This document shows, piece after piece, positions 9,024 through 27,727 of a stretch of DNA of 64,000 bases (positions are counted from its first letter, which is position 1; each line of letters begins with the position of its first letter). Under the pieces are notes generated by a model. It searched no databases. It saw only the letters and a program-made list of their open reading frames with translations, and was not told the origin of the DNA. Source of the DNA: Escherichia coli. Lineage in GTDB: Bacteria; Pseudomonadota; Gammaproteobacteria; Enterobacterales; Enterobacteriaceae. The stretch is from the NCBI RefSeq assembly GCF_024700885.2, contig NZ_CP117016.1. The stretch is one strand, 5' to 3'. Made by a program: the position numbers and the translations under genes.

Positions 9024-11455
9024 TCCAGCCCCATCGCCCGCAAATGCTCGGCCACTTTCTCGCTCAACGCCTCAACGGAGGCTTCAAGCGCTAGCAACGG
9101 TTCAGCATAACGCTCTTCCAGCTCCTTTACGCGCGACGCCAGTTGCTGGGTAATACGCTCAATCTCCGCCTTGATCCCTGCCTGCAACGTTGCCAGCCAC
9201 TTATCCTGCACTACCAGCGTTTTAATCGCTGCTTCATCCAGCGTGGGATAATGTTTAAACACCGCCCGATCCAGCGCTTCTTGTGCGGCTTTCAGCGCTT
9301 TTTTCGCACTGGCTTCGGCCTTAATTAGCGCCAGGCAGCGGTTCAGCACTGCCAGCTCATCTGGGCCGGCAGTGGTTTTCTTTAACTGTGCTAGACGGGC
9401 ATTCACCAGCTTTTGCGTCACCTTATCTTTATCGTTCTTCGCCTCGGCCAGCAGATCCTCTTCACCTGCCTGCTCCTCGATGAATTCCACTAGCTGACGA
9501 CTGGCTTCTTCACTGCGCTCCTGCGCGCGGTTCAGCGCATCCAGCAGTTCCGGGAAACAGCGAATTTCCACCAGCGAACGGGGCAGCACATCGGCCTTGT
9601 AGCGCCGTTTGGTAAACTCGAAATCGTGCGTTTCTTTCCAGATGTTTTTGCCATCTTTGCCTTTCACCGGCTGAAGCTCGCGGATTTGCGCGGCGGCTTG
9701 CCAGCCATCCTGCATAATCGCATACACATCGTCTTGCATGACATCAGTCCAGTAATCCATCAGGATCTGGTACACGCTGTATTTGTTCAGCAACTCACTG
9801 TTGGCGTACTGCGCCAATAGCATTTCGCTGATATCGTGGATTAGCGCTTTGGGTTTATCACCTTTGCGAATCTCTTCCAGACTTGCCTCTTTCACCCACG
9901 CTTTAAACGGTAGCAGGCTGCGGGTGGCAAAATCCTTAAACTCCTGATGCGCCAGAATGGTCGGTTTCACCTGTTGCGCGTTCACCTGCGCCCGACAGTA
10001 ACCGGGACGGTCGTCAGCAAACAGCACGTTGCGCAGGGCAGGGAATACCCGCCAGTAATCTTGCAAAGCATCCACATCGCGTGCCGGAATACCGCCCTGT
10101 AAGTGCGCGGTCAGATCGTGTAAATCTTCCGGCTCGCCGCTCTCGATATAGCGAGGAATATTCAGGTTGTAATCATTTCCGGCGATCTCGCTGGAGGGCA
10201 CCATCCGGCTGTAGCCAGGTACCGTTCGCTGATGGTTGAACACGTCCACAATGCGGTGAATATCTCGGCTACGCAGGCGGTTCTTGTTGCCATCTTTGAT
10301 AAAGCCCCGGCTGGCGTCGATCATAAAAATGCCTTTGCGGCTGTGGGCGTGCTCTTTATCAATCACAATGATGCACGCCGGGATGCCGGTGCCGTAAAAC
10401 AGGTTGGCTGGCAAACCAATAACGCCTTTGATATAGCCCTGCTTGATTAGATTTTCACGGATATTCGCTTCGGCGTTACCGCGAAACAGTACGCCGTGGG
10501 GCAGGATCACCGCGCCTTTGCCGGTACTTTTCAGGCTTTTAATGATATGCAACAAAAAAGCATAATCGCCGTTTTTTTCCGGCGGAATACCCCAGCCGAA
10601 GCGTTCAAACGGATCTTTTTTCGGCGTCAGCCCGTTGGTCCAGTTTTTATTGGAAAAAGGCGGGTTCGCCACGGCAAAATCGAAGGCTTTCAGTTTGCCG
10701 TTCGCCTCTTTCCACTGCGGATCGCTCAGCGTATTGCCCTGCCAGATTTTCGCGGTGGCATTGTTATGCAGAATCATGTTCATCCGCGCCAGCGCACTGG
10801 TAGCGTTATCCATCTCCTGGCCGAAAATCGACAGTCCGCGCCGGGCTTCATCATTCACTTTCAACAGCAGCGAACCAGAGCCACAGGTTGGGTCATAAAC
10901 CGTTGCATCTTGCGGAGTATCGGGAGTAATACCAATCACCTTCGCCAGAATACGTGACACCTCCGCTGGAGTGTAAAACTGCCCTTTACTCTTACCGGAT
11001 TCGGTTGCGAAGTGACGCATCAGATATTCATAGGCATCGCCCAGCAGATCGTCGCCTTCGGCCCGGTTGCTGGAGAGATTTAACCCTTCAAAGATACCGA
11101 CAAGCTTGCTCAGGCGGTCAATCATTTCCTTGCCTTTGCCGAGCTTATCTTCGTCGTTAAAGTCGGCTTCGTCGATGACGCCCTTCAGGCCGTTCTCTTC
11201 CGCCAGCTTGTGGATGATTTTGTTGATTTTGTCGCCGATCTCTTTGTCATTTTTCAGCGCAACCATATCGTCAAAGCTGGCTCCTTTGGGTATCACGATC
11301 ATCCCGTAAGGATCGCCTTTATACTTATCGGAAACGTACTTCATAAACAGCAGGGTCAGTACATAGTCTTTGTACTGGCTGGCGTCCATCCCGCCACGCA
11401 GTTCGTCGCAGCTTGCCCACAGGGAAGAATAGAGTTCGGTTTTTTTGATAGCCAT
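9017..11455 (-). CDS. hsdM: Type I restriction-modification methyltransferase subunit (HsdM), long form with ~300-aa C-terminal coiled-coil extension
   Basis: 812 aa; HsdM N-terminal domain (MAIKKTELYSSLWASCDELRG...), AdoMet motif I DPTCGSGSLL and N6-adenine motif IV NPPF; C-terminal third is Ala/Glu/Lys/Leu-rich and predicted helical. Confidence 0.85.
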   Translation of the reverse strand: MAIKKTELYSSLWASCDELRGGMDASQYKDYVLTLLFMKYVSDKYKGDPYGMIVIPKGASFDDMVALKNDKEIGDKINKIIHKLAEENGLKGVIDEADFNDEDKLGKGKEMIDRLSKLVGIFEGLNLSSNRAEGDDLLGDAYEYLMRHFATESGKSKGQFYTPAEVSRILAKVIGITPDTPQDATVYDPTCGSGSLLLKVNDEARRGLSIFGQEMDNATSALARMNMILHNNATAKIWQGNTLSDPQWKEANGKLKAFDFAVANPPFSNKNWTNGLTPKKDPFERFGWGIPPEKNGDYAFLLHIIKSLKSTGKGAVILPHGVLFRGNAEANIRENLIKQGYIKGVIGLPANLFYGTGIPACIIVIDKEHAHSRKGIFMIDASRGFIKDGNKNRLRSRDIHRIVDVFNHQRTVPGYSRMVPSSEIAGNDYNLNIPRYIESGEPEDLHDLTAHLQGGIPARDVDALQDYWRVFPALRNVLFADDRPGYCRAQVNAQQVKPTILAHQEFKDFATRSLLPFKAWVKEASLEEIRKGDKPKALIHDISEMLLAQYANSELLNKYSVYQILMDYWTDVMQDDVYAIMQDGWQAAAQIRELQPVKGKDGKNIWKETHDFEFTKRRYKADVLPRSLVEIRCFPELLDALNRAQERSEEASRQLVEFIEEQAGEEDLLAEAKNDKDKVTQKLVNARLAQLKKTTAGPDELAVLNRCLALIKAEASAKKALKAAQEALDRAVFKHYPTLDEAAIKTLVVQDKWLATLQAGIKAEIERITQQLASRVKELEERYAEPLLALEASVEALSEKVAEHLRAMGLEW

Positions 11456-12732: not shown

Positions 12733-13677
12733 ATGGATTTAATTATGGAATGGAGATTTTTAGGTTCTCTATCAGAGGCCAGGAAATCTGGCTGTAGCGG
12801 AGTTTATCTTATTGTCCATAAAGGACTTTTCAGTCGTGTGGTTTACGTTGGGGTAAGTTGTAATGTAGGTAGAAGGATAACCGAACATTACGACGGTTAT
12901 CTTAGAGGAAATCGAACAATTTACGACGCTGGTCACGACGAAGACGTTTATCGCTTCATGTCAGCTTATAAAATTCATAACCACACAAAATACTATCAAG
13001 CCTTGGCGAATGATTATAAGATATGGGCATCTACCACAATGTATTCTGATTTGCCGAAAAACATGCTAGCAAAAAGCCAAACCTTTGATACTGATTGGCA
13101 GAGCATTGCATTAGAAAAATATATTCCTCAACTGGTAGTATGGGCCCTTCCAATGGCAAAGTACTGTTATTCAAATGCAAGCAGGATTGAAAGTGTAATC
13201 CAATCAAAGCTCATTAAATCTTTTGATTTGAGAGGTTTTTTTAATATAAAGCAATTAAGCATATTGGGTAAAATTGAATATCCCTATATGGAAAAGGTCA
13301 AAGTTTTCATTATTAACACACCTGATTTAGACCCGGCATCCCAGCTTATTTTTAGCAATCTATATAACAAAAAAACTGATAACAACTTCTGTAAAGAGTT
13401 CCGTTCACAATTTAAAAGCGAGATTTTTCAGAGGGAAAGTGAAACTCAGAGAAAGCGAACTATCAGGGAGCATAAGGTATCTCTTTATGAAAATTATGGC
13501 AAGCCTTGGACTTTAAAGGAAATGGAAAAACTTAGAGTCATGCTTGTCGATTTTGATTTGTCCCCGATAGAAATATCTGAGTATCTAGGAAGAGAGCCGC
13601 GCTCTATATCTAAAAAAATAAGCGAAAATGATAAAGTTACTAATTATAAATGGCGAGAGAGCGTCGGCTGGTTGTGA
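12733..13677 (+). CDS. Hypothetical protein with GIY-YIG-like nuclease N-terminus and HTH-like C-terminus, in an AT-rich segment
   Basis: 314 aa; N-terminus GVYLIVHKGLFSRVVYVGVSCNVGRRITEH resembles the GIY...YIG...R...H core of GIY-YIG nucleases such as I-TevI; C-terminal ...WTLKEMEKLRVMLVDFDLSPIEISEYLGREPRSISKKI resembles a helix-turn-helix; flanked by ~400 bp of AT-rich non-coding DNA. Confidence 0.55.
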   Translation: MDLIMEWRFLGSLSEARKSGCSGVYLIVHKGLFSRVVYVGVSCNVGRRITEHYDGYLRGNRTIYDAGHDEDVYRFMSAYKIHNHTKYYQALANDYKIWASTTMYSDLPKNMLAKSQTFDTDWQSIALEKYIPQLVVWALPMAKYCYSNASRIESVIQSKLIKSFDLRGFFNIKQLSILGKIEYPYMEKVKVFIINTPDLDPASQLIFSNLYNKKTDNNFCKEFRSQFKSEIFQRESETQRKRTIREHKVSLYENYGKPWTLKEMEKLRVMLVDFDLSPIEISEYLGREPRSISKKISENDKVTNYKWRESVGWL

Positions 13678-13892
13678 CGTTACGTTTTGATTGAAATAAC
13701 CCCCATTTTGCAAAGTCCGCTCTTGGCACAGAGCGGACTGTCAGATGAGGTTTAGTTCTGTACTAATGAGCCGATACAAATTAGCTGCATATACCTGCAT
13801 TCCAAATAATTTTAGGCAGATATTATCTCCGTGAGTCCCCCGCCACTTTTCCGGTGCGCGGGGTTTTGTCTTTTTTCACCGGGAATACATGT

Positions 13893-14765
13893 ATGAATCC
13901 GTCTGATGCCATTGAGGCAATTGAAAAACCGCTCTCCTCCCTGCCTTACTCACTTTCCCGTCACATCCAGGAACATCTGCGCAAACTCACCAGTCACGAA
14001 CCCGTGATTGGCATTATGGGTAAAAGCGGGGCCGGTAAATCCTCACTCTGTAATGCACTGTTTCAGGGGGAGGTCACCCCGGTCAGTGATGTTCACGCCG
14101 GCACCCGGGAAGTGCGGCGCTTCCGTCTGAGTGGCCACGGTCACAGCATGATTATCACTGACCTGCCCGGGGTGGGCGAGAGCCGGGACAGGGATGCAGA
14201 GTATGAAGCCCTGTACCGTGACATTCTGCCTGAACTTGACCTGGTACTGTGGCTGATTAAAGCCGATGACCGTGCCCTGTCTGTGGATGAGTATTTCTGG
14301 CGACACATACTGCACCGGGGACATCAGCAGGTGCTGTTTGTGGTGACGCAGGCCGACAAAACGGAGCCCTGCCATGAATGGGATATGGCCGGCATTCAGC
14401 CTTCTCCCGCACAGGCACAGAACATTCGGGAGAAAACGGAGGCGGTATTCCGTCTGTTCCGGCCCGTACATCCGGTTGTTGCCGTATCGGCCCGCACCGG
14501 CTGGGAACTGGATACGCTGGTCAGTGCGCTAATGACAGCACTTCCCGACCATGCCGCCAGTCCCCTGATGACCCGCCTGCAGGACGAGCTGCGCACGGAA
14601 TCTGTCCGCGCTCAGGCCCGTGAACAGTTTACCGGTGCGGTGGACCGGATATTTGACACGGCGGAGAGCGTCTGTGTTGCCTCTGTTGCCCGTACGGTTC
14701 TGCGTGCCGTCCGTGACACGGTGGTCTCTGTTGCCCGCGCTGTATGGAACTGGATTTTCTTCTGA
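13893..14765 (+). CDS. yeeP: YeeP/YkfA/YfjP-family GTPase (CP4-type island gene)
   Basis: P-loop GIMGKSGAGKSS, G3 DLPG and TQADK G4 motifs; start placed at MNPSDAIEAIEK (13893) rather than the ORF-track start 13854. Confidence 0.85.
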   Translation: MNPSDAIEAIEKPLSSLPYSLSRHIQEHLRKLTSHEPVIGIMGKSGAGKSSLCNALFQGEVTPVSDVHAGTREVRRFRLSGHGHSMIITDLPGVGESRDRDAEYEALYRDILPELDLVLWLIKADDRALSVDEYFWRHILHRGHQQVLFVVTQADKTEPCHEWDMAGIQPSPAQAQNIREKTEAVFRLFRPVHPVVAVSARTGWELDTLVSALMTALPDHAASPLMTRLQDELRTESVRAQAREQFTGAVDRIFDTAESVCVASVARTVLRAVRDTVVSVARAVWNWIFF

Positions 14766-14879
14766 ACACTCTGCCAGGGGAAATGCCTGATTACATTGCG
14801 TTAACCAACTGAAAACATGATACAAACACTCCATCCCCCTCCTGTTTCTCTTGCGTGACTGCCCTGCTGTTAATAGAAT

Positions 14880-14925
14880 AAAACGATCGATAAAACAGGT
14901 ATCGATCGTTACCATCGATCGTTTA
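14880..14925 (+). promoter_or_regulatory. agn43 (flu) phase-variation switch: three closely spaced GATC Dam sites in the OxyR operator
   Basis: GATC at 14885-14888, 14904-14907 and 14917-14920, ~210 bp upstream of the Ag43 start, matching the known Dam/OxyR switch architecture. Confidence 0.75.
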
Positions 14926-15137
14926 TAGTGGTTAATGGTCTGCGAAAAGGCAGCTGAATCTCTTCATCATGCAGAACGGAATTGCACACAACGGACTGAT
15001 ACTTCTCTGGCGGATGAGAGAGGGGAAGCATTTATGTCCGGGAAAAACCACTTTATCTGACCATGCTGTTTTGTACCTGCCGGTATCCACATTTGTGGGT
15101 ACCGGCTTTTTTATTCACCCTCTGTAAGGAAAAGCTG

Positions 15138-17984
15138 ATGAAACGACATCTGAACACCAGCTACAGGCTGGTATGGAATCACATTACGGGCACCCTGGTG
15201 GTGGCTTCCGAACTGGCGCGCTCACGGGGAAAACGCACCGGTGTGGCGATTGCGCTGTCTCTTGCTGCTGTCACATCAGTTCCGGCACTGGCTGCTGACA
15301 CGGTTGTACAGGCGGGAGAAACCGTGAGCGGCGGAACACTGACAAATCATGACAACCAGATTGTTCTCGGTACGGCCAACGGAATGACCATCAGTACCGG
15401 TCTGGAGTATGGGCCGGATAACGAGGCCAATACCGGCGGGCAATGGATACAAAATGGCGGTATCGCCAACAACACTACTGTCACCGGTGGTGGTCTTCAG
15501 AGAGTGAATGCCGGAGGAAGCGTTTCAGACACGGTTATCAGTGCCGGAGGCGGACAGAGCCTTCAGGGGCAGGCAGTGAATACCACTCTGAACGGCGGTG
15601 AGCAGTGGGTACATGAAGGCGGGATTGCAACGGGTACCGTCATTAATGAGAAGGGCTGGCAGGCCGTCAAATCCGGCGCAATGGCAACCGACACGGTTGT
15701 GAATACCGGCGCGGAAGGGGGACCAGATGCAGAAAATGGTGATACCGGGCAGTTTGTTCGCGGAAATGCCGTACGTACCACCATCAATAAAAATGGTCGT
15801 CAGATTGTGGCTGTTGAAGGAACAGCAAATACCACTGTGGTTTATGCCGGCGGCGACCAGACGGTACACGGGCATGCGCTGGATACCACACTGAATGGCG
15901 GTTACCAGTATGTGCACAACGGAGGCACAGCCTCTGACACGGTTGTAAACAGTGACGGCTGGCAGATTGTCAAGGAAGGTGGTCTGGCGGATTTCACCAC
16001 CGTTAACCAGAAAGGCAAACTGCAGGTGAACGCCGGTGGTACAGCCACGAATGTCACCCTGAAACAGGGTGGAGCACTGGTCACCAGTACTGCGGCAACG
16101 GTTCTTGGCAGCAACCGTCTGGGCAATTTCACGGTGGAAAACGGTAAGGCTGACGGCGTTGTTCTGGAGTCCGGCGGTCGCCTGGATGTACTGGAAGGCC
16201 ATTCAGCGCAGAAAACACGGGTGGATGACGGCGGAACCCTGGCAGTGTCTGCCGGTGGTAAGGCAACAGATGTCACCATGACATCCGGTAGTGCCCTGAT
16301 TGCAGACAGTGGTGCCACTGTTGAGGGGACCAATGCCAGCGGTAAGTTCAGTATTGATGGCACATCCGGTCAGGCCAGCGGACTGCTGCTGGAAAATGGC
16401 GGCAGCTTTACGGTTAATGCCGGGGGACAGGCCAGCAACACCACTGTCGGACATCGTGGAACACTGATGCTGGCTGCCGGGGGAAGTCTGAGTGGCAGAA
16501 CACAGCTCAGTAAAGGCGCCAGCATGGTACTGAATGGTGATGTGGTCAGTACCGGCGATATTGTTAACGCAGGGGAGATTTACTTTGACAATCAGACAAC
16601 ACCGGATGCCGTACTGAGCCGTGCTGTTGCAAAAGGCGACTCCCCGGTAACGTTCCATAAACTGACAACCAGTAACCTCACCGGTCAGGGTGGCACCATC
16701 AATATGCGTGTTCGCCTTGATGGCAGCAATGCCTCTGACCAGCTGGTGATTAATGGTGGTCAGGCAACCGGCAAAACCTGGCTTGCGTTTACAAATGTCG
16801 GAAACAGCAACCTCGGGGTGGCAACCTCCGGACAGGGTATCCGGGTTGTGGATGCACAGAATGGCGCCACCACAGAAGAAGGTGCGTTTGCCCTGAGTCG
16901 CCCGCTTCAGGCCGGCGCCTTTAACTACACCCTGAACCGTGACAGCGATGAAGACTGGTACCTGCGCAGTGAAAATGCTTATCGTGCTGAAGTCCCCCTG
17001 TATACATCCATGCTGACACAGGCAATGGACTATGACCGGATTCTGGCAGGCTCCCGCAGCCATCAGACCGGTGTAAACGGTGAAAATAACAGCGTCCGTC
17101 TCAGCATTCAGGGCGGTCATCTCGGTCACGATAACAACGGCGGTATTGCCCGTGGAGCCACGCCGGAAAGCAGCGGCAGCTATGGCTTCGTCCGTCTGGA
17201 GGGTGACCTGCTCAGAACAGAGGTTGCCGGTATGTCTCTGACGACAGGGGTGTATGGTGCTGCAGGCCATTCTTCCGTTGATGTTAAGGATGATGACGGT
17301 TCCCGCGCCGGCACGGTCCGGGATGATGCCGGCAGCCTGGGCGGATACCTGAATCTGACACACACGTCCTCCGGCCTGTGGGCTGACATTGTGGCACAGG
17401 GAACCCGCCACAGCATGAAAGCGTCATCGGACAATAACGACTTCCGCGCCCGGGGCTGGGGCTGGCTGGGCTCACTGGAAACCGGTCTGCCCTTCAGTAT
17501 CACTGACAACCTGATGCTGGAGCCACAACTGCAGTACACCTGGCAGGGGCTCTCCCTGGATGACGGCCAGGATAACGCCGGTTATGTGAAGTTCGGGCAT
17601 GGCAGTACACAACATGTGCGTGCCGGCTTCCGTCTGGGCAGCCACAACGATATGACCTTTGGCGAAGGCACCTCATCCCGTGACACTCTGCGCGACAGTG
17701 CAAAACACCGTGTGAGTGAACTGCCGGTGAACTGGTGGGTACAGCCTTCTGTTATCCGCACTTTCAGCTCCCGGGGTGACATGAGCATGGGTACAGCCGC
17801 AGCCGGCAGTAACATGACGTTCTCACCCTCACAGAATGGCACATCACTGGACCTGCAGGCCGGACTGGAAGCCCGTGTCCGGGAAAATATCACCCTGGGC
17901 GTTCAGGCCGGTTATGCCCACAGCATCAACGGCAGCAGCGCTGAAGGTTATAGCAGTCAGGCCACGCTGAATGTGACCTTCTGA
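15138..17984 (+). CDS. flu: Antigen 43 self-associating autotransporter
   Basis: Signal peptide MKRHLNTSYRLVWNHITGTLVVASELARSRGKRTGVAIALSLAAVTSVPALA, repetitive passenger (…GGTA.NTT.N.GG.Q.V…) and C-terminal beta-barrel ending ...ATLNVTF. Confidence 0.9.
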   Translation: MKRHLNTSYRLVWNHITGTLVVASELARSRGKRTGVAIALSLAAVTSVPALAADTVVQAGETVSGGTLTNHDNQIVLGTANGMTISTGLEYGPDNEANTGGQWIQNGGIANNTTVTGGGLQRVNAGGSVSDTVISAGGGQSLQGQAVNTTLNGGEQWVHEGGIATGTVINEKGWQAVKSGAMATDTVVNTGAEGGPDAENGDTGQFVRGNAVRTTINKNGRQIVAVEGTANTTVVYAGGDQTVHGHALDTTLNGGYQYVHNGGTASDTVVNSDGWQIVKEGGLADFTTVNQKGKLQVNAGGTATNVTLKQGGALVTSTAATVLGSNRLGNFTVENGKADGVVLESGGRLDVLEGHSAQKTRVDDGGTLAVSAGGKATDVTMTSGSALIADSGATVEGTNASGKFSIDGTSGQASGLLLENGGSFTVNAGGQASNTTVGHRGTLMLAAGGSLSGRTQLSKGASMVLNGDVVSTGDIVNAGEIYFDNQTTPDAVLSRAVAKGDSPVTFHKLTTSNLTGQGGTINMRVRLDGSNASDQLVINGGQATGKTWLAFTNVGNSNLGVATSGQGIRVVDAQNGATTEEGAFALSRPLQAGAFNYTLNRDSDEDWYLRSENAYRAEVPLYTSMLTQAMDYDRILAGSRSHQTGVNGENNSVRLSIQGGHLGHDNNGGIARGATPESSGSYGFVRLEGDLLRTEVAGMSLTTGVYGAAGHSSVDVKDDDGSRAGTVRDDAGSLGGYLNLTHTSSGLWADIVAQGTRHSMKASSDNNDFRARGWGWLGSLETGLPFSITDNLMLEPQLQYTWQGLSLDDGQDNAGYVKFGHGSTQHVRAGFRLGSHNDMTFGEGTSSRDTLRDSAKHRVSELPVNWWVQPSVIRTFSSRGDMSMGTAAAGSNMTFSPSQNGTSLDLQAGLEARVRENITLGVQAGYAHSINGSSAEGYSSQATLNVTF

Positions 17985-18098
17985 TAATTCTGCATTGCCT
18001 CTCTGTGGTCCCGGTCATCATGACCGGGACCCGGACGGGGGAAAACGTTTCAGTGCCACATTCACTGGCATTCACAATAACATGATATTCATCACGGA

Positions 18099-20621
18099 GT
18101 GACTATGTTACAGATAGTCGGCGCGCTGATTCTGCTGATCGCAGGATTTGCCATTCTTCGCCTTTTGTTCAGAGCATTAACCAGCACAGCGTCTGCGCTG
18201 GCAGGGTTCGTATTGCTGTGTCTGTTCGGCCCGGCTTTACTGGCTGGCTATATCACTGAACGCATAACCCGGTTATTCCATATTCGCTGGCTGGCAGGCG
18301 TATTTCTGACGATTGCCGGAATGATTATCAGCTTCATGTGGGGACTTGATGGTAAACATATCGCACTGGAGGCTCATACTTTTGACTCTGTAAAATTTAT
18401 TCTGACCACCGCTCTCGCCGCTGGTCTGCTGGCTCTTCCCGTGCAGATAAGAACCATTCAGCAGAACGGGCTCACACCTGAAGATATCAGCAAGGAAATT
18501 AACGGGTATTACTGCTGTTTTTATACTGCTTTTTTCCTTATGGCGTGTTCTGCATACGCACCATTGATCGCATTGCAGTTCGATATTTCACCCTCACTGA
18601 TGTGGTGGGGCGGGTTGTTGTACTGGCTGGCTGCATTAGTGGCGCTGCTATGGGCGGCCAGCCAGATCCAGGCGCTGAAAAGACTGACCAGTGCCATCCG
18701 CCAGACACTGGAAGAACAACCGGTGCTCAACAGTAAATCGTGGCTGAGCAGTTTGCAAAACGATTACAGCCTTCCTGAAACGCTGACGGAGCGCATCTGG
18801 CTGACACTCATTTCACAACGGATTTCCCGGGGAGAACTGAGGGAATTTGAACTGGCAGACGGAAACTGGCTACTGGACAATGCCTGGTATGAAAGAAACA
18901 TGGCGGGTTTCAACGAAAAGCTGAGAGAGAGCCTGTCATTTACCCCTGATGAACTGAAAACCCTCTTCCGGAACCGCCTGAATTTATCACCGGAAGCGAA
19001 TGACGATTTTCTCGATCGTTGCCTGGACGGCGGTGACTGGTACCCCTTTTCAGAAGGCCGCCGTTTTGTATCATTCCACCACGTGGATGAGCTTCGTATC
19101 TGTGCCTCCTGCGGGCTGACAGAAGTACATCATGCCCCGGAAAATCATAAGCCGGATCCGGAATGGTACTGCTCCTCTCTTTGTCGCGAAACAGAAACAC
19201 TGTGTCAGGACATTTATGAACGTTCTTACACCGGTTTTATTTCCGATGCAACGGCGAATGGTCTGATTCTCATGAAACTGCCGGAAACCTGGAGTACAAA
19301 TGAGAAAATGTTTGCTTCCGGAGGGCAGGGACATGGGTTTGCCGCTGAACGGGGAAACCATATTGTCGACAGAGTCCGTCTGAAAAACGCACGGATCCTC
19401 GGTGATAATAATGCCAGAAATGGAGCAGACAGACTGGTCAGCGGAACAGAAATCCAGACGAAATATTGTTCAACTGCAGCCCGTAGCGTCGGTGCGGCAT
19501 TCGACGGACAAAACGGACAGTATCGTTACATGGGAAATCATGGTCCCATGCAACTGGAAGTCCCCCGTGATCAGTATGCCGGCGCTGTGGAAACCATGAA
19601 GAATAAGATCCGCGAAGGTAAAGTACCCGGTGTAACCGATCCCGCAGAAGCGTCCCGGCTGATTCGTCGGGGACATCTGACTTATACCCAGGCCCGTAAT
19701 ATCACCCGGTTCGGGACCATCGAATCGGTCACTTATGATATTGCCGAGGGGTCGGTTGTCAGTCTGGCGGCCGGAGGGATCAGTTTTGCCCTGACGGCAT
19801 CGGTCTTCTGGCTCAGCACCGGCGATCGCGATGCTGCCCTGCAGACAGCTGCTGTCCAGGCAGGAAAAACCTTCACCCGCACACTGGCTGTCTACGTCAC
19901 AACCCAGCAACTTCACCGGCTCAGTGTTGTTCAGGGTATGCTGAAGCATATTGATTTTTCGACGGCCAGCCCGACTGTCCGGCAGGCGCTTCAGAAGGGG
20001 ACCGGTGCAGGAAATATCAGTGCCCTGAACAAAGTGATGAAGGGTACGCTGGTGACATCTCTGGCACTGGTAGCTGTCACAACCGGCCCTGACATGATCA
20101 AAATGTTGCGGGGACGGATCTCCGGTGCGCAGTTCATCAGGAATCTTGCCGTGGCATCTTCCGGTGTGGCAGGTGGTGCTGTCGGGTCAGTGGCGGGCGG
20201 GATATTGTTCAGTCCACTGGGACCATTTGGTGCACTGACAGGGCGTGTGGTTGGCGGTGTTCTGGGGGGAATGATTGCCTCCGCTGTATCAGGAAAAATT
20301 GCCGGAGCGCTGGTTGAAGAAGATCGCGTCAAAATTCTGGCAATGATTCAGGAGCAGGTGACATGGCTTGCCGGCAGTTTCCTGCTGACCGGACATGAGA
20401 TTGAAAATCTGAACGAGAATCTGGCCCGTGTTATCGATCAGAATGCTCTGGAGATCATTTTCGCCGCCGGTATACAACAACGGGCCGCGACCAATATGTT
20501 AATCAAACCACTGGTGGTCAGTATCATCAGGCAACGCCCCGTCATGGAATATGATGCATCCCATCTCGGCAATATGGTTAACCGACTGGAAGAAGCATTA
20601 CCCCCGGAGTTACCGGCATAA
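18099..20621 (+). CDS. yeeR: YeeR-like inner-membrane protein, full length
   Basis: 840 aa; N-terminal hydrophobic helices, internal Cys cluster (CASCGL...CSSLC), C-terminal Gly-rich hydrophobic region; positioned after flu as in CP4-44. Confidence 0.65.
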   Translation: MTMLQIVGALILLIAGFAILRLLFRALTSTASALAGFVLLCLFGPALLAGYITERITRLFHIRWLAGVFLTIAGMIISFMWGLDGKHIALEAHTFDSVKFILTTALAAGLLALPVQIRTIQQNGLTPEDISKEINGYYCCFYTAFFLMACSAYAPLIALQFDISPSLMWWGGLLYWLAALVALLWAASQIQALKRLTSAIRQTLEEQPVLNSKSWLSSLQNDYSLPETLTERIWLTLISQRISRGELREFELADGNWLLDNAWYERNMAGFNEKLRESLSFTPDELKTLFRNRLNLSPEANDDFLDRCLDGGDWYPFSEGRRFVSFHHVDELRICASCGLTEVHHAPENHKPDPEWYCSSLCRETETLCQDIYERSYTGFISDATANGLILMKLPETWSTNEKMFASGGQGHGFAAERGNHIVDRVRLKNARILGDNNARNGADRLVSGTEIQTKYCSTAARSVGAAFDGQNGQYRYMGNHGPMQLEVPRDQYAGAVETMKNKIREGKVPGVTDPAEASRLIRRGHLTYTQARNITRFGTIESVTYDIAEGSVVSLAAGGISFALTASVFWLSTGDRDAALQTAAVQAGKTFTRTLAVYVTTQQLHRLSVVQGMLKHIDFSTASPTVRQALQKGTGAGNISALNKVMKGTLVTSLALVAVTTGPDMIKMLRGRISGAQFIRNLAVASSGVAGGAVGSVAGGILFSPLGPFGALTGRVVGGVLGGMIASAVSGKIAGALVEEDRVKILAMIQEQVTWLAGSFLLTGHEIENLNENLARVIDQNALEIIFAAGIQQRAATNMLIKPLVVSIIRQRPVMEYDASHLGNMVNRLEEALPPELPA

Positions 20622-20696
20622 CGGCTATTCTGCGCCTTTTACGCTTTATCACCTGATTTGTCAGTGTCATCGTCATGACTCAGAGAGGTAAATACC

Positions 20697-21152
20697 ATGA
20701 TTCACCTGTTCAAAACCTGCATGATTACCGCCTTCATTCTGGGGTTAACGTGGTCTGCCCCACTCCGGGCACAGGATCAACGTTACATCAGTATACGCAA
20801 TACAGATACGATATGGCTCCCGGGAAATATTTGTGCCTACCAGTTCCGGCTGGATAATGGCGGAAACGATGAAGGATTTGGCCCCCTCACCATCACTCTG
20901 CAACTCAAAGACAAATATGGTCAGACGCTGGTGACCAGAAAAATGGAAACGGAAGCCTTTGGTGACAGTAATGCCACGCGAACCACAGACGCATTTATGG
21001 AAACGGAGTGCGTGGAAAATGTCGCCACAACCGAAATCATTAAAGCAACTGAAGAAAGTAACGGCCATCGTGTCAGTCTGCCGTTATCGGTTTTTGATCC
21101 CCAGGACTACCATCCACTGCTGATTACCGTTTCCGGAAAAAATGTTAACTGA
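20697..21152 (+). CDS. Hypothetical secreted protein (signal peptide)
   Basis: 151 aa with N-terminal hydrophobic signal-like segment ...ITAFILGLTWSAPLRAQ; no family recognised. Confidence 0.55.
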   Translation: MIHLFKTCMITAFILGLTWSAPLRAQDQRYISIRNTDTIWLPGNICAYQFRLDNGGNDEGFGPLTITLQLKDKYGQTLVTRKMETEAFGDSNATRTTDAFMETECVENVATTEIIKATEESNGHRVSLPLSVFDPQDYHPLLITVSGKNVN

Positions 21153-21483
21153 TCCCTGAAGTCAGTTTCATGCTTCAGCCTCTGCCACAACGTATGGCAG
21201 AGGCTATTTATCAGGAGAAACCAGATATGCCGGGTTACACACAGAGTATGTCCTGGCTGAAGGATCTTTCTCATACGGGCAGACGGTGGCTGTCACAACA
21301 GCTTACCTTAATGTGCTTATTGAAGATGACCAGGTGCGCACTTCCGGCTGGTTATCCGCAACGCGGAAGGTCAGCGACGCTGGCGCTGCCGGAATACTGA
21401 ACCCTGTGCCGGAAAGCAGCTTAATGCGTGGCTCGCCAGTGAAGGGCTTCTCAGACAATAAACGTCATTGATTTCGTCCATCA

Positions 21484-21515
21484 GGCCGCGTCTTCTCCGG
21501 GAGACGCGGCTTTTT
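21484..21515 (+). terminator. Rho-independent terminator-like hairpin
   Basis: GCCGCGTCT ... AGACGCGGC stem followed by TTTTTT (21510-21515). Confidence 0.45.
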
Positions 21516-21561
21516 TCATTTATTACACCAGTAAATCTTAACCACCGATAAGGAGCAAAGT

Positions 21562-22383
21562 ATGCGATTAGCCAGTCGTTTTGGTTATGCTGCAAACCAG
21601 ATACGCCGTGACCGTCCACTGACACATGAAGAGCTGATGCACCATGTGCCGGGGATTTTCGGGGAAGATAAACACACGTCCCGAAGCCAGAACTATACGT
21701 ACATCCCCACCATCACCGTGCTGGAAAGTCTGCAGCGGGAAGGCTTCCAGCCATTCTTCGCCTGCCAGACCCGTGTGCGCGACCCGGGCCGTCGGGGATA
21801 CACAAAACACATGCTGCGTCTGCGGCGGGCCGGAGAGATAAACGGAGAACATGTCCCTGAAATTATTCTGCTCAACTCTCATGACGGTACCTCCAGCTAC
21901 CAGATGCTGCCGGGTTACTTCAGGTTCGTCTGCCAGAACGGGTGCGTCTGTGGTCAGTCTCTGGGGGAAGTGCGTGTTCCGCACCGGGGAAATGTAGTGG
22001 AGAAAGTTATCGAAGGGGCTTACGAGGTGGTGGGGGTTTTTGACCGGATAGAGGAGAAGCGTGATGCCATGCAGTCGCTGGTCCTGCCGCCACCGGCACG
22101 CCAGGCGCTGGCACAGGCGGCACTGACTTACCGTTATGGTGACGAACATCAGCCCGTCACCACCGCCGACATTCTGACGCCACGACGCCGGGAGGATTAC
22201 GGAAAGGACCTGTGGAGTGCTTATCAGACCATCCAGGAGAATATGCTGAAAGGGGGGATTTCCGGTCGCAGTGCCAGAGGAAAACGTATCCACACCCGTG
22301 CCATTCACAGCATCGACACCGACATTAAGCTCAACCGCGCATTGTGGGTGATGGCTGAAACGCTGCTGGAGAGTATGCGCTGA
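21562..22383 (+). CDS. DUF932-family protein (YfjQ/YafZ-like)
   Basis: 273 aa; position and sequence character match the DUF932 genes of CP4-type islands. Confidence 0.7.
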   Translation: MRLASRFGYAANQIRRDRPLTHEELMHHVPGIFGEDKHTSRSQNYTYIPTITVLESLQREGFQPFFACQTRVRDPGRRGYTKHMLRLRRAGEINGEHVPEIILLNSHDGTSSYQMLPGYFRFVCQNGCVCGQSLGEVRVPHRGNVVEKVIEGAYEVVGVFDRIEEKRDAMQSLVLPPPARQALAQAALTYRYGDEHQPVTTADILTPRRREDYGKDLWSAYQTIQENMLKGGISGRSARGKRIHTRAIHSIDTDIKLNRALWVMAETLLESMR

Positions 22384-22474
22384 TGCCGTTTCCCTGAAAG
22401 CGCAGTTCTGACTCACGTCTGTCCCTTCCCCCGGGATTTCTTCCATTCATTTACTTTTTATAAGGAATAATCTC

Positions 22475-22960
22475 ATGACAACCGTCTTGCATAATTCCAC
22501 CACTCCTTCTGTTTCCGTAACCGCTGCATCAGGGAATGACCAGCCTCAGCTGGTTGCCACCATAGTCCCTGATGAACAGCGCATCAGCTTCTGGCCGCAG
22601 CACTTTGGCCTCATTCCACAGTGGGTGGCCCTGGAGCCCCGTGTCTTCGGCTGGATGGACCGTCTGTGTGAAGACTACTGCGGTGGTATCTGGAATCTGT
22701 ACACCCTGAACAACGGCGGGGCATTTATGGCACCCGAACCGGATGACGATGATGACGAAACATGGGTACTGTTCAATGCCATGAACGGTAACCGCGCTGA
22801 AATGAGCCCGGAAGCCGCCGGCATTGCTGCCTGTCTGATGACGTACAGCCATCATGCCTGTCGTACGGAGTGTTATGCCATGACGGTCCATTATTACCGG
22901 TTGCGGGATTACGCCCTGCAGCATCCGGAATGCAGCGCCATTATGCGCATCATCGACTGA
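22475..22960 (+). CDS. Anti-restriction protein (ArdB/KlcA family, YfjX/YafX-like)
   Basis: 161 aa; acidic DDDDDE stretch and ...FGWMDRLCEDYCGGIWNLYTLNNGGAFMAP... typical of this family; position upstream of the radC-like gene. Confidence 0.75.
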   Translation: MTTVLHNSTTPSVSVTAASGNDQPQLVATIVPDEQRISFWPQHFGLIPQWVALEPRVFGWMDRLCEDYCGGIWNLYTLNNGGAFMAPEPDDDDDETWVLFNAMNGNRAEMSPEAAGIAACLMTYSHHACRTECYAMTVHYYRLRDYALQHPECSAIMRIID

Positions 22961-23452
22961 ATGGAGAGAAGCACAATGCAACAGCTTTCCTTTCTGCCCG
23001 GAGAGATGACGCCCGGCGAGCGCAGTCTCATTCTGCGGGCCCTGAAAACTCTGGACCGCCATCTTCATGAACCCGGCGTGGCCTTCACCTCCACCCGTGC
23101 GGCACGGGAATGGCTGATTCTGAACATGGCGGGACTGGAGCGTGAAGAATTCCGGGTGCTGTATCTGAATAACCAGAATCAACTGATTGCCGGTGAAACC
23201 CTCTTCACCGGCACCATCAACCGCACGGAAGTCCATCCCCGGGAAGTGATTAAACGCGCCCTGTACCACAATGCCGCTGCCGTGGTGCTGGCGCACAATC
23301 ACCCGTCCGGTGAAGTCACACCCAGCAAGGCAGACCGCCTTATCACGGAACGTCTGGTACAGGCACTGGGCCTGGTGGATATCCGGGTGCCGGACCATCT
23401 GATAGTCGGTGGCAACCAGGTTTTCTCCTTTGCCGAACATGGTCTGCTTTAA
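22961..23452 (+). CDS. yeeS: RadC-like JAB-domain protein (YeeS/YfjY/YkfG family)
   Basis: JAMM motif HNHPSGEVTPSKAD; alternative start at 22976 (MQQLSFLPGE). Confidence 0.85.
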   Translation: MERSTMQQLSFLPGEMTPGERSLILRALKTLDRHLHEPGVAFTSTRAAREWLILNMAGLEREEFRVLYLNNQNQLIAGETLFTGTINRTEVHPREVIKRALYHNAAAVVLAHNHPSGEVTPSKADRLITERLVQALGLVDIRVPDHLIVGGNQVFSFAEHGLL

Positions 23453-23514
23453 CCCGTCACAACCACATCACACCTGTTTTCACTTTTATCTTCTGTCTTC
23501 AGAGGTATCACATC

Positions 23515-23736
23515 ATGAGAATCATCACCCGTGGTGAAGCCATGCGTATTCACCAACAGCATCCTGCATCCCGTCTTTTTCCGTTCTGTACCGGTAAGTA
23601 TCGCTGGCACGGCAGTGCTGAAGCGTATACTGGTCGTGAAGTGCAGGATATTCCCGGCGTTCTTGCCGTGTTTGCAGAACGCCGTAAGGACAGTTTTGGC
23701 CCGTATGTCCGGCTGATGAGTGTCACCCTGAACTGA
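23515..23736 (+). CDS. yeeT: YeeT-family small protein (DUF987)
   Basis: 73 aa; position between radC-like gene and cbeA. Confidence 0.7.
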   Translation: MRIITRGEAMRIHQQHPASRLFPFCTGKYRWHGSAEAYTGREVQDIPGVLAVFAERRKDSFGPYVRLMSVTLN

Positions 23737-23898
23737 TGTTCCGTCACCCGGGAAACGAGTACGACCAGATGACCTCAGACGCCGCTGTGGATGAGGCCAT
23801 TCTCATCAATGCATACATCTTCACCGAAACCGGTCAGCGCGCCGGCTGACCTGTCATCGTTAAACCATTCTTAACCACTTTTCAGAGAGGATTTTATC

Positions 23899-24273
23899 GT
23901 GTCAGACAAACTCTCCGGGATAACTCATCCCGATGACAATCACGACCGCCCCTGGTGGGGGCTTCCCTGCACAGTGAGGCCCTGTTTTGGCGCTCGTCTG
24001 GTGCAAGAGGGTAACCGCCTGCATTACCTTGCCGACCGCGCCGGTATCAGAGGCCGCTTCAGCGACGCAGATGCATACCATCTGGACCAGGCCTTTCCGC
24101 TGCTGATGAAACAACTGGAACTCATGCTCACCAGCGGTGAACTGAATCCCCGATATCAGCATACCGTCACGCTGTATGCAAAAGGGCTGACCTGCGAAGC
24201 CGACACCCTCGGCTCCTGTGGTTACGTTTATCTGGCTGTTTATCCGACACCAGCACCCGCAACCACCTCATAA
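23899..24273 (+). CDS. cbeA: CbeA (YeeU) type IV antitoxin
   Basis: 124 aa, ...[34 protein letters not shown]...; immediately upstream of cbtA. Confidence 0.85.
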
Positions 24274-24319
24274 CCCCGAAGCTCTCACCTTTAGCACTAC
24301 CAGTTACAGAGAACTTAAG

Positions 24320-24694
24320 ATGAAAACATTATCCGACACACATGTACGGGAGGTATCTCGCTGCCCGTCTCCCGTCACCATCTGGCAGACACTGCTCATC
24401 CGACTGCTGGACCAGCATTATGGCCTCACACTGAATGACACACCGTTTGCCGATGAACGTGTGATTGAGCAGCATATTGAGGCAGGCATTTCACTGTGTG
24501 ATGCAGTTAATTTTCTCGTGGAAAAATACGCGCTGGTGCGTACCGACCAGCCGGGATTCAGCACCTGTCCCCGCTCTCAGTTAATAAACAGTATTGATAT
24601 CCTCCGGGCTCGCCGGGCGACCGGCCTGATGACCCGCGACAATTACAGAACGGTAAATAACATTACCCTGGGTAAGTATCCGGAGGCGAAATGA
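24320..24694 (+). CDS. cbtA: CbtA (YeeV) type IV toxin (cytoskeleton-targeting)
   Basis: 124 aa [26 protein letters not shown]...; ATG at 24320 preferred over the ORF-track start 24218. Confidence 0.85.
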
Positions 24695-25182
24695 TGAAAC
24701 TGGCCCTGACACTGGAAGCCGACAGCGTTAACGTACAGGCACTGAACATGGGGCGCATTGTCGTTGACGTCGATGGTATTGAGCTCGCTGAACTGATTAA
24801 CATGGTCTGCGATAACGGCTACTCCCTTCGTGTTGTTGATGAATCTGACCAGACCTCAGCAGAATGCACGCCACCATTTGCTACCCTTACCGGCATACGC
24901 TGCAGTACCGCACATATCACGGAAACGGACAACGCCTGGTTGTACTCGCTGTCACACCAGACCAGTGACTTCGGTGAATCAGAATGGATTCATTTTACAG
25001 GTAGCGGATATCTGTTACGTACCGATGCGTGGTCATACCCGGTTCTGCGGCTTAAACGCCTGGGGCTGTCAAAAACGTTCCGTCGTCTGGTCGTCACACT
25101 CATCCGGCGTTATGGCGTCAGTCTCATTCATCTGGATGCCAGCGCTGAATGCCTGCCGGGTTTACCCACTTTCGACTGGTAA
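24691..25182 (+). CDS. yeeW: YeeW-family protein
   Basis: 163 aa, start overlaps the cbtA stop by 4 nt. Confidence 0.65.
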
Positions 25183-25193
25183 CCAGGAACAAC

Positions 25194-25391
25194 ATGAAAT
25201 CATTAACCACGGAAACAGCGCTGGATATTCTGATTGCGTGGCTGCAGGACAATATCGACTGCGGATCGGGAATTATCTTTGACAACGATGAGGATAAAAC
25301 GGATTCAGCAGCACTGTTGCCCTGTATCGAACAGGCCCGGGAGGATGTCCGTACCCTGCGTCATCTGCAGCTTCTGCACCAGAACCGGTGA
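25194..25391 (+). CDS. Hypothetical small protein (65 aa)
   Basis: MKSLTTETALDILIAWLQDN...; start placed at internal Met of ORF-track ORF 25149-25391. Confidence 0.45.
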   Translation: MKSLTTETALDILIAWLQDNIDCGSGIIFDNDEDKTDSAALLPCIEQAREDVRTLRHLQLLHQNR

Positions 25392-25475
25392 AGCTCACTC
25401 ACCAGACTTCATTCCTCTGACGCCAGCCTGCACAGGGCTGGCGTTTTCATTTATCTGCAAAAAGGAATATCGATT

Positions 25476-26318
25476 ATGTCAGATATCACAATCTCCCGTC
25501 CGGAAGTGGTCAACGGGCATACGGACGTTATCTGCTCAACCAGCATTCGCCACATTCTGGCTGTACGAAAGAGTACACTGTTGCAAATCGACACACTTAT
25601 CCGACAACTGGCTGAAATCTCGGTGCTGACGGAAAGCATCGGAGGTAAAACTGCCCCGGACTGGGCCATGAAACAGGATTTTCGCTGCGGCTGCTGGCTG
25701 ATGGAGAAACCCGAAACAGCAATGAAAGCCATTACCCGGAATCTTGATCGCGAAATCTGGCGTGACCTGATGCAACGTTCCGGGATGCTGTCATTAATGG
25801 ATACGCAGGCCCGTGATACATGGTACCGGTCACTGGAGTACGATAATTTTCCGGAAATCAGCGAAGCGAACATTCTGAGCACATTTGAACAACTGCACCA
25901 GAATAAGGATGAGGTGTTTGAGCGAGGGGTGATCAACGTCTTCAGAGGGCTGAACTGGAATTACAAAACCAATTGCCCCTGTAAATTTGGCAGTAAAATT
26001 ATCGTCAACAATCTGGTGAGATGGGACCGGTGGGGATTTCATCTTATCACCGGACAACAGGCTGACCGACTCGCCGATCTGGAAAGAATGTTGCACCTGT
26101 TCAGCGGTAAACCAATCCCCGACAACCGGGGAAACATCACCCTTCGTCTGGATGATCACATTCAGTCTGTTCAGGGTAAAGAGAGCTATGAAGATGAGAT
26201 GTTCAGCATCAGATACTTTAAGAAGGGCTCCGCGCATATCACGTTCAGAAAACCAGAACTGGTTGACAGACTGAATGATATTATCGCAAAACACTATCCT
26301 GATATGCTGGCAGTATAG
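25476..26318 (+). CDS. Hypothetical protein (280 aa), last island gene before the tRNA
   Basis: Long ORF with protein-like composition; no motif recognised. Confidence 0.6.
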   Translation: MSDITISRPEVVNGHTDVICSTSIRHILAVRKSTLLQIDTLIRQLAEISVLTESIGGKTAPDWAMKQDFRCGCWLMEKPETAMKAITRNLDREIWRDLMQRSGMLSLMDTQARDTWYRSLEYDNFPEISEANILSTFEQLHQNKDEVFERGVINVFRGLNWNYKTNCPCKFGSKIIVNNLVRWDRWGFHLITGQQADRLADLERMLHLFSGKPIPDNRGNITLRLDDHIQSVQGKESYEDEMFSIRYFKKGSAHITFRKPELVDRLNDIIAKHYPDMLAV

Positions 26319-26467
26319 CTTTGCCAGTATGCTCAAAGATCGGAAATTGTCCGATAAGATATAATCGCGGGGCATATAAACCGGTTTCAGATGGCATACC
26401 CGATGGCATACTGTCTGGAAGGAAAAATAAAAAAGCGCATGTTAAACAATAACATGCGCTTATAATC

Positions 26468-26555
26468 TGGCGGTGAGGGGGGGATTCGAACCCCCGATAC
26501 GTTGCCGTATACACACTTTCCAGGCGTGCTCCTTCAGCCACTCGGACACCTCACC
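26468..26555 (-). tRNA. serX: tRNA-Ser (anticodon GGA), serX-like
   Basis: Reverse complement reads GGTGAGGTGTCCGAGTGGCTGAAGGAGCACGCCTGGAAAGTGTG...GGGGGTTCGAATCCCCCCCTCACCGCCA: long variable arm, T-loop GGTTCGAATCC, CCA end, GGA anticodon. Confidence 0.95.
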
Positions 26556-26749
26556 AAATTGTTGTTCCTGTCTTGCTGGAACGGGCGCTAATTTAGGGAA
26601 ATCATGACCTGAGGTCAACAAACTTTTTTAAAAAATCGCGCGTTTATTCAAACTTCAATCAATATGCAGTTTTAATAAGCGAAATCTGCTTTTTTTGCCA
26701 CCGACCACGGATTTGTTATGCTGGTGGCTTTTGTAGATCATAACGATAA

Positions 26750-27727
<978 letters not shown>

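Follow-up and report, generated by a model that had tools for sequence, protein, structure and literature searches.

The window analysed here, a stretch of 64,000 nucleotides of the Escherichia coli chromosome, contains an accessory segment that runs up to a gene for tRNA-Ser(GGA), and no integrase gene stands beside that tRNA. This raises the question of where the recombinase of such an island is to be sought, and of whether a tRNA junction of this kind is a product of decay or part of the normal architecture of the element. The initial annotation, made from the letters of the window, had named both possibilities: an integrase located beyond the window, at the other end of the island, or a decayed composite.

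Genome records and comparison loci

The source of the window is the chromosome of E. coli strain MLI114 (NZ_CP117013.1), which it matches at 100% identity in reverse orientation; a window position w corresponds to position 3216397 - w of that record. Two stretches of the record to the left of the window were included, L001 (3189000-3238999) and L002 (3238000-3287999), and positions within them are given together with the name of the stretch. The loci used for comparison were those of K-12, the empty-site strain VTB97585v, O157:H7 strain F6667, SpLE1 of strain Sakai, Nissle, LR-31 and LP5-1. The population sample consisted of 5426 complete E. coli genomes. The coordinates of the features are collected in Table 1.

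Table 1. Features of the serX island of MLI114 and its surroundings (window positions unless a stretch is named)
Feature	Position	Strand	Basis or remark
Part of the serX island inside the window	1-26467	.	Remainder (53.9 kb, with int) is to the left of position 1
YgjP-like metallopeptidase gene, after hsdR	2120-2836	-	Annotation
hsdR	2836-5931	-	Annotation
darG	5950-7017	-	PADLOC DarG, 1.4e-127
darT	7014-7670	-	PADLOC DarT, 1.9e-74
hsdS	7683-9017	-	Annotation
hsdM	9017-11455	-	Annotation
CP4-like right-hand module	13893-26318	+	Annotation and Pfam
DUF4942 (yeeW-like) gene, last gene of the island	25476-26318	+	Pfam, E 8.7e-69; counterpart of Sakai ECs_1409
Putative attP arm on the DUF4942 side, island-derived and non-coding; true right end of the island	26319-26467	-	Homology stop and junction alignment
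CAGTATGC, inverted partial copy of the arm repeat	26325-26332	+	Comparison of the two arms
11-mer TATCGGACAAT, candidate accessory-factor site	26346-26356	-	Common to the integrase-side arm (k-mer comparison)
Two GTATGCCAT repeats, 12 bp apart, candidate integrase arm-type sites	26391-26411	-	Copies at 26391-26399 and 26403-26411
Island-borne hairpin and T-run, 6 nt after the CCA	26423-26461	-	12-pair stem (terminator scan)
att core, 14 bp, CCCCCTCACCGCCA, the last 14 nt of the tRNA	26468-26481	-	Second copy at L002 32265-32278
serX, tRNA-Ser(GGA), intact, integration target	26468-26555	-	ARAGORN; sole tRNA in the window
Tyrosine integrase, 400 aa, intact	L002 30902-32104	-	Arm-DNA-bind_3, Phage_int_M and Phage_integrase (Pfam)
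RtT-like repeat arrays	L003 13284-14021 (K-12); L002 32265-32540; L004 3001-3470		

The island begins at the CCA end of serX

The tRNA gene at the junction, described initially as serX-like, proved identical to K-12 serX at all 88 of its 88 positions. It can be assigned to serX rather than to the paralogue serW because of this identity and because its neighbours on the other side follow the order ghrA-ycdX-ycdY-ycdZ-csg. When the junction was aligned with that of K-12, both sequences were found to contain CACCGCCA up to the boundary, beyond which K-12 reads TATTTAAAG and the window reads GATTATAAG; in the sense of the tRNA, CCCCCTCACCGCCA is followed by TATTTAAAGAAGAGCTCG in K-12 and by GATTATAAGCGCATG in the window. 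Since the two sequences diverge right after the CCA, island DNA abuts the CCA end of the tRNA, with the boundary at 26467/26468, and serX has been left intact by an insertion placed exactly at its 3′-end. Genomes without the island lose homology to the window at 26460-26468. The accessory segment had been thought to end about 150 bp from the tRNA. This distance is correct for the last open reading frame, which ends 149 bp away, but the boundary itself lies at the CCA and the 149 bp are island DNA. The 14-mer CCCCCTCACCGCCA occurs once in the window while none would be expected from shuffled sequences, so its occurrence is not due to chance.

The integrase and the second att core lie at the far end

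To the left of serX the inserted DNA extends over 80,334 bp (record positions 3189930-3270263), its far end lying ∼80.3 kb from serX and 53.9 kb to the left of window position 1. An intact tyrosine integrase gene of the P4 family ends the island there, as one of the two initial suggestions had it. Its start codon and a perfect, directly oriented copy of CCCCCTCACCGCCA are 160 bp apart. The sequence that runs from the integrase side into this distal core reads TTTCAGGCGGT-CCCCCTCACCGCCA, and homology to island-free genomes resumes exactly at L002 32265. An exact search of L001 and L002 located the 14-mer only at the two island ends, with no internal copy in the 80 kb. A search of the far end with the last 25 nt of the tRNA, allowing up to three mismatches, had matched nothing because the true repeat is only 14 bp long, as was read from the sequence and confirmed by the exact search. 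Extending the sequence leftwards, the check proposed in the initial annotation, thus yielded both the far boundary and a perfect repeat of the tRNA end. The remark that the 26 kb of island within the window hold no integrase was also correct: PGAP annotates none in 1-26467, and a tblastn search of the window for a hidden or degenerate copy, with the island integrase as the query, gave a best E value of 0.39.

The integrase is identical to the copy of O157:H7 strain F6667 at 399 of its 400 residues, and its gene is 99.6% identical in nucleotide sequence to Sakai ECs_1299, which RefSeq places inside the 'phage-like element SpLE1' (1370598-1456845). A 98-aa protein with a Phage_AlpA domain (E 5e-19) is encoded 3 kb from int, under an accession shared with O157.

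The displaced native flank and the empty site

Past the distal repeat lie the native terminator hairpin and RtT-like repeats of 181 bp, the same arrangement that is seen downstream of serX in empty-site strains; in a restored empty site of MLI114, the serX CCA would be joined to TCTTTAAAGAAGAGCTCG. Every RtT-like repeat carries the 14-bp core; the final 19 nt of the tRNA form its end, and a terminator-like hairpin comes after it. The number of extra copies is four in K-12, two in VTB97585v and one in MLI114, and the insertion of the island shifts the array 80 kb away from serX. An Rfam scan of the far end returned only a sub-threshold RtT match (42.3 versus 45 bits) and a weak match to MicC, taken as spurious. 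The RtT-like repeats were also considered as secondary insertion sites. A chimeric query joining repeat and island sequence had full-length matches in none of the 5426 genomes (0/5426), every junction being at the tRNA itself, and this idea was discarded.

Strain VTB97585v lacks the island but has serX, the repeats, a DUF2726 gene and phoH; its empty site thus shares the flanks of MLI114. A comparison with island-free serX loci had been recommended at the outset; K-12 and VTB97585v, together with O157, gave precise boundaries, and VTB97585v supplied the empty site. The left flank differed from the ycdU initially expected: it is formed in MLI114 by the DUF2726 gene and phoH, and pgaABCD-dgcT-ycdU is absent from this locus. 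The interval between phoH and the serX repeats (L002 32549-34585) consists of the single DUF2726 gene both in MLI114 and in VTB97585v, while its K-12 counterpart (L003 1530-13091) consists of pgaDCBA-dgcT-IS3-ycdU; this is a separate presence/absence polymorphism beside the island site.

The 149 bp beside serX resemble one arm of an attachment site

The non-coding right arm (26319-26467) shows 96% column identity across Sakai SpLE1, Nissle and LR-31. Its hairpin folds with -17.4 kcal/mol (z -6.9), and the native hairpin of K-12 serX, which occupies the same place, with -20.4 kcal/mol. The island therefore appears to supply its own serX terminator, replacing the native one.

The pair of GTATGCCAT repeats in this arm is matched by a second pair between int and the distal core (L002 32126-32146), which is spaced identically and oriented alike with respect to the core; in each copy 8 of the 9 bases are invariant in diverged relatives. 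Both arms also contain TATCGGACAAT. On the integrase side, the GGCGGT that precedes the core is the inverted complement of the ACCGCC within the core, with 7 bases (CCCCCTC) between them. The GTATGCCA motifs are invariant in LR-31, LP5-1 and Nissle, strains in which the junction or the integrase is only 91-94% identical. The shared repeats, their conservation and the arm-binding domain of the integrase suggest that a single attP has 26319-26467 as one arm and L002 32105-32264 as the other, a reading that argues against ends derived from different elements. From their position and conservation, the repeated motifs can be regarded as candidate binding sites.

Right-hand module and cargo of the island

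The tRNA-proximal end of the island had been described as the yeeW side of a CP4-like module, and this was confirmed by annotation and Pfam, which identified CbeA, CbtA, DUF5983, DUF957 and DUF4942 there. The complete set of yee-type genes is present and ordered, running from a YeeP-like GTPase through Ag43, an 838-aa open reading frame, IrmA, a DUF905 pseudogene, DUF932, an antirestriction protein, a RadC-like JAB protein, DUF987, the CbeA/YeeU antitoxin, the CbtA/YeeV toxin, DUF5983 and DUF957 to DUF4942/YeeW, whose gene ends 149 bp from the 3′-end of the tRNA. Compared with SpLE1, the right end is 91.5% identical in nucleotide sequence over 13848-17985 and 96.7% identical over 21407-27000. 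SpLE1 holds different genes after Ag43. The 838-aa open reading frame (18105-20621, + strand), between Ag43 and IrmA, had no Pfam match and only a weak PADLOC match to PDC-M09B (E 1.6e-5). A 314-aa open reading frame upstream of the YeeP-like GTPase gene (12733-13677, + strand) had no match in Pfam or PADLOC.

The intact cargo comprises a type I restriction-modification (R-M) system with DarTG, Ag43, an Afa/Dr-type chaperone-usher cluster, sugar-utilisation genes and an enterotoxin-like gene. In the R-M operon (2120-11455, - strand), the DarT/DarG pair is located between hsdS and hsdR. The left edge of the window (1-1775) is scarred by insertion sequences: a truncated autotransporter β-barrel (249-1118) is followed by a partial IS600 transposase (1161-1775), and a partial IS5 lies just outside the edge. 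Further away, outside the window, the integrase-proximal part of the island has a possible defence locus at L002 16955-23866 (record positions 3254954-3261865): a 1652-aa protein with an AAA domain and a 478-aa partner are encoded there, and their neighbour is a pseudogene with the annotation 'TOTE conflict system archaeo-eukaryotic primase'.

Why the intact tRNA has no integrase beside it

The junction is, very probably, the tRNA-side attachment end of an integrative island that is complete in structure, belongs to the SpLE1, OI-43/48 and SRL PAI family and is inserted in the last 14 bp of serX. No observation speaks against this structural reading. Site-specific recombination would have placed the element into these 14 bp. 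In this family, int adjoins attP on the side that meets the displaced 14-bp tRNA fragment after integration, and is transcribed inwards; the intact tRNA thereby always meets the opposite end, namely the yee/CP4-like module that ends in DUF4942. The absence of int beside the intact tRNA is explained by the position of the gene on the attP side that becomes joined to the displaced fragment. The 149 bp would represent the second attP arm, with the paired GTATGCCAT repeats serving as sites for the N-terminal arm-binding domain of the integrase. The native serX terminator has been displaced to the far end together with the RtT-like repeats, its place being taken by the island hairpin.

The anatomy of the island, its repeats, the identity of its integrase, the architecture in relatives and the distribution among genomes are direct observations; the present-day mobility of the MLI114 island and the roles of its motifs are what we infer. 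That this copy can still excise has an even chance or slightly better, an estimate made by analogy because the O157 islands excise although laden with insertion sequences. A more detailed proposal is tentative and falls short of an even chance: the MLI114 copy would be mobile, the GTATGCCAT pairs would be integrase arm-type sites, TATCGGACAAT would be the site of an accessory factor (Rox/AlpA or IHF), and the integrase would discriminate strictly between the tRNA end and the identical 19-nt copies in the RtT-like repeats. If this were true, recognition of attB would extend into the T-arm of the tRNA, and the island would be a general vehicle in which ter, ure and iha have been exchanged for type I R-M and DarTG, with the recombination backbone unchanged.

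The island might instead be a fixed and decayed remnant that no longer moves, in which case the junction would be a fossil and the distal integrase irrelevant to it. The state of the cargo is in keeping with such a history. According to the annotation tables, ∼23 of the ∼75 island CDS (∼30%) are pseudogenes or fragments of insertion sequences, with remnants of IS600, IS5, IS3, IS66, IS481, IS630, IS150 and IS1; the other broken genes include iroC, iroE and iroN, which leaves iroCDEN mostly broken, and a truncated autotransporter. The recombination module is in a different state: the integrase departs from the O157 copy by one residue, the AlpA-family protein is the same as in O157, both 14-bp cores are perfect and both arms are conserved. 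Moreover, O157 islands with this module and a similar load of insertion sequences excise precisely (PMC3064760). Immobility of the island is the less likely case. The initial suggestion of a decayed composite describes the mosaic, pseudogene-rich cargo well, but does not extend to the recombination module and the two att ends, which are intact.

A second possibility is a tandem composite, in which a CP4-like element without an integrase would have come to lie at the tRNA, next to an unrelated island that brought the integrase. The mosaic cargo with its many insertion-sequence boundaries would fit this, as would the fact that yee modules also occur without a tRNA or an integrase, CP4-44 of K-12 being an example. 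Two elements in tandem are, however, very improbable and were rejected as an explanation: the 14-bp core does not recur inside the island, the paired GTATGCCAT and TATCGGACAAT are common to both ends in the same orientation, as would be the case for the arms of one attP, and the same two ends bound Sakai SpLE1, the same arrangement of ends also bounding CP4-6 in K-12. The reading as one integrative island, with its integrase at the end distal to the intact tRNA, is therefore retained.

Distribution among E. coli genomes and implications

The DUF4942-serX-ghrA junction was found in 1151 of the 5426 complete E. coli genomes, and a segment consisting of the integrase and the repeat in 1258 of them, so that either the junction or the integrase is carried by ∼21-23% of the sample. 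The segment is accessory: the gene order of the window, which would be core were it shared by all E. coli, is absent from most of them. That the region is ordinary core DNA and not an island can be dismissed almost with certainty, given the limited number of genomes with the junction, the existence of an empty site with identical flanks, and the fact that the alignment of K-12, APEC O1 and many other genomes starts only at the tRNA (window 26460/26468) and continues to its right.

A tRNA-island junction with no integrase adjoining it is the normal architecture in SpLE1, OI-48, the SRL PAI and CP4-6 of K-12, and not a sign of decay. When genomes are scanned for such islands, the distal end is the place to look for the integrase and for a copy of the final 14 nt of the tRNA. 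For annotation, the non-coding stretch beside the tRNA should be counted as island DNA, comprising a putative attP arm and a probable replacement terminator. A backbone common to ∼21-23% of complete E. coli genomes carries very different cargo depending on the lineage, which is relevant to the tracking of virulence and defence genes. Beyond correct annotation the significance of these observations is small.

Comparison with known islands

The island family is already known, and its att sites and excision have been published. In O157:H7, a perfect 14-bp repeat, TGGCGGTGAGGGGG, stands at either end of OI-43 and OI-48 and comprises the last 14 bp of serW and serX (PMC3064760); this sequence is the reverse complement of the MLI114 core, and both ends of the MLI114 island carry it perfectly. 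According to Bielaszewska et al. (PMC3064760), the Shigella SRL PAI has identical repeats, the integrases of OI-43/48 and of the SRL PAI are 99% identical, and OI-43 and OI-48 undergo complete excision through site-specific recombination, with a frequency of ∼1e-3 to 1e-4 per cell.

The closest relative is SpLE1 of O157:H7 Sakai, the tellurite-resistance and adherence island equivalent to O-island 48 (and, at serW, to OI-43) of EDL933. It has the same target, the 3′-end of serX, where its boundary has also been drawn, and the same 14-bp repeat. Its int lies next to ycdU, far from the tRNA, and its 843-bp DUF4942 gene, ECs_1409, lies 149 bp from serX, as in MLI114. O157 strain F6667 likewise has int at the distal end and a yee module ending in DUF4942 beside the tRNA. 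The integrase-proximal 7 kb of the MLI114 island (a 605-aa open reading frame, an IS1 remnant, the AlpA-family protein, DUF3987 and YfjI) are 99.7% identical in nucleotide sequence to O157, and the right-hand module is 91-97% identical to SpLE1. The MLI114 island is the smaller of the two (80.3 versus 86.2 kb), and none of the ter, ure and iha genes of SpLE1 is annotated in its 80 kb. It is thus not a tellurite-resistance/adherence island (TAI) in the strict sense, but one with the same backbone and other cargo.

The likeness to the SRL PAI, as judged from published descriptions, lies in the identical 14-bp repeat and the 99% identical integrase. Precise excision of the SRL PAI from serX requires int, and serW is an alternative site that is strongly suspected but undemonstrated (PMC7545054). 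Its recombination directionality factor (RDF) is Rox (PMC3014918), the candidate counterpart of which in MLI114 is the 98-aa AlpA-family protein. The resistance locus and the fec genes of the SRL PAI are both missing from the MLI114 island.

PAI-CFT073-serX, PAI-UTI89-serX and the serX island of Nissle 1917 occupy the same site and have the same DUF4942-serX junction (94.8% identical in Nissle). These islands hold Ag43 and salmochelin genes (PMC7545054). In MLI114 Ag43 is intact, the iro genes are mostly pseudogenes, and an Afa/Dr-type cluster is found instead of S/F1C pili, no sfa/foc genes being annotated; the MLI114 island is thus not a CFT073-type serX island.

CP4-6 of K-12 differs in its tRNA (thrW) and its integrase, and does not have a full DUF4942 gene beside the tRNA. 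Its layout is nonetheless that of the MLI114 island: an intact tRNA is followed by ykfI-yafW and a yee-like toxin-antitoxin module transcribed towards the tRNA, and intF is located at the distal end, ∼110 bp from the boundary, and transcribed inwards.
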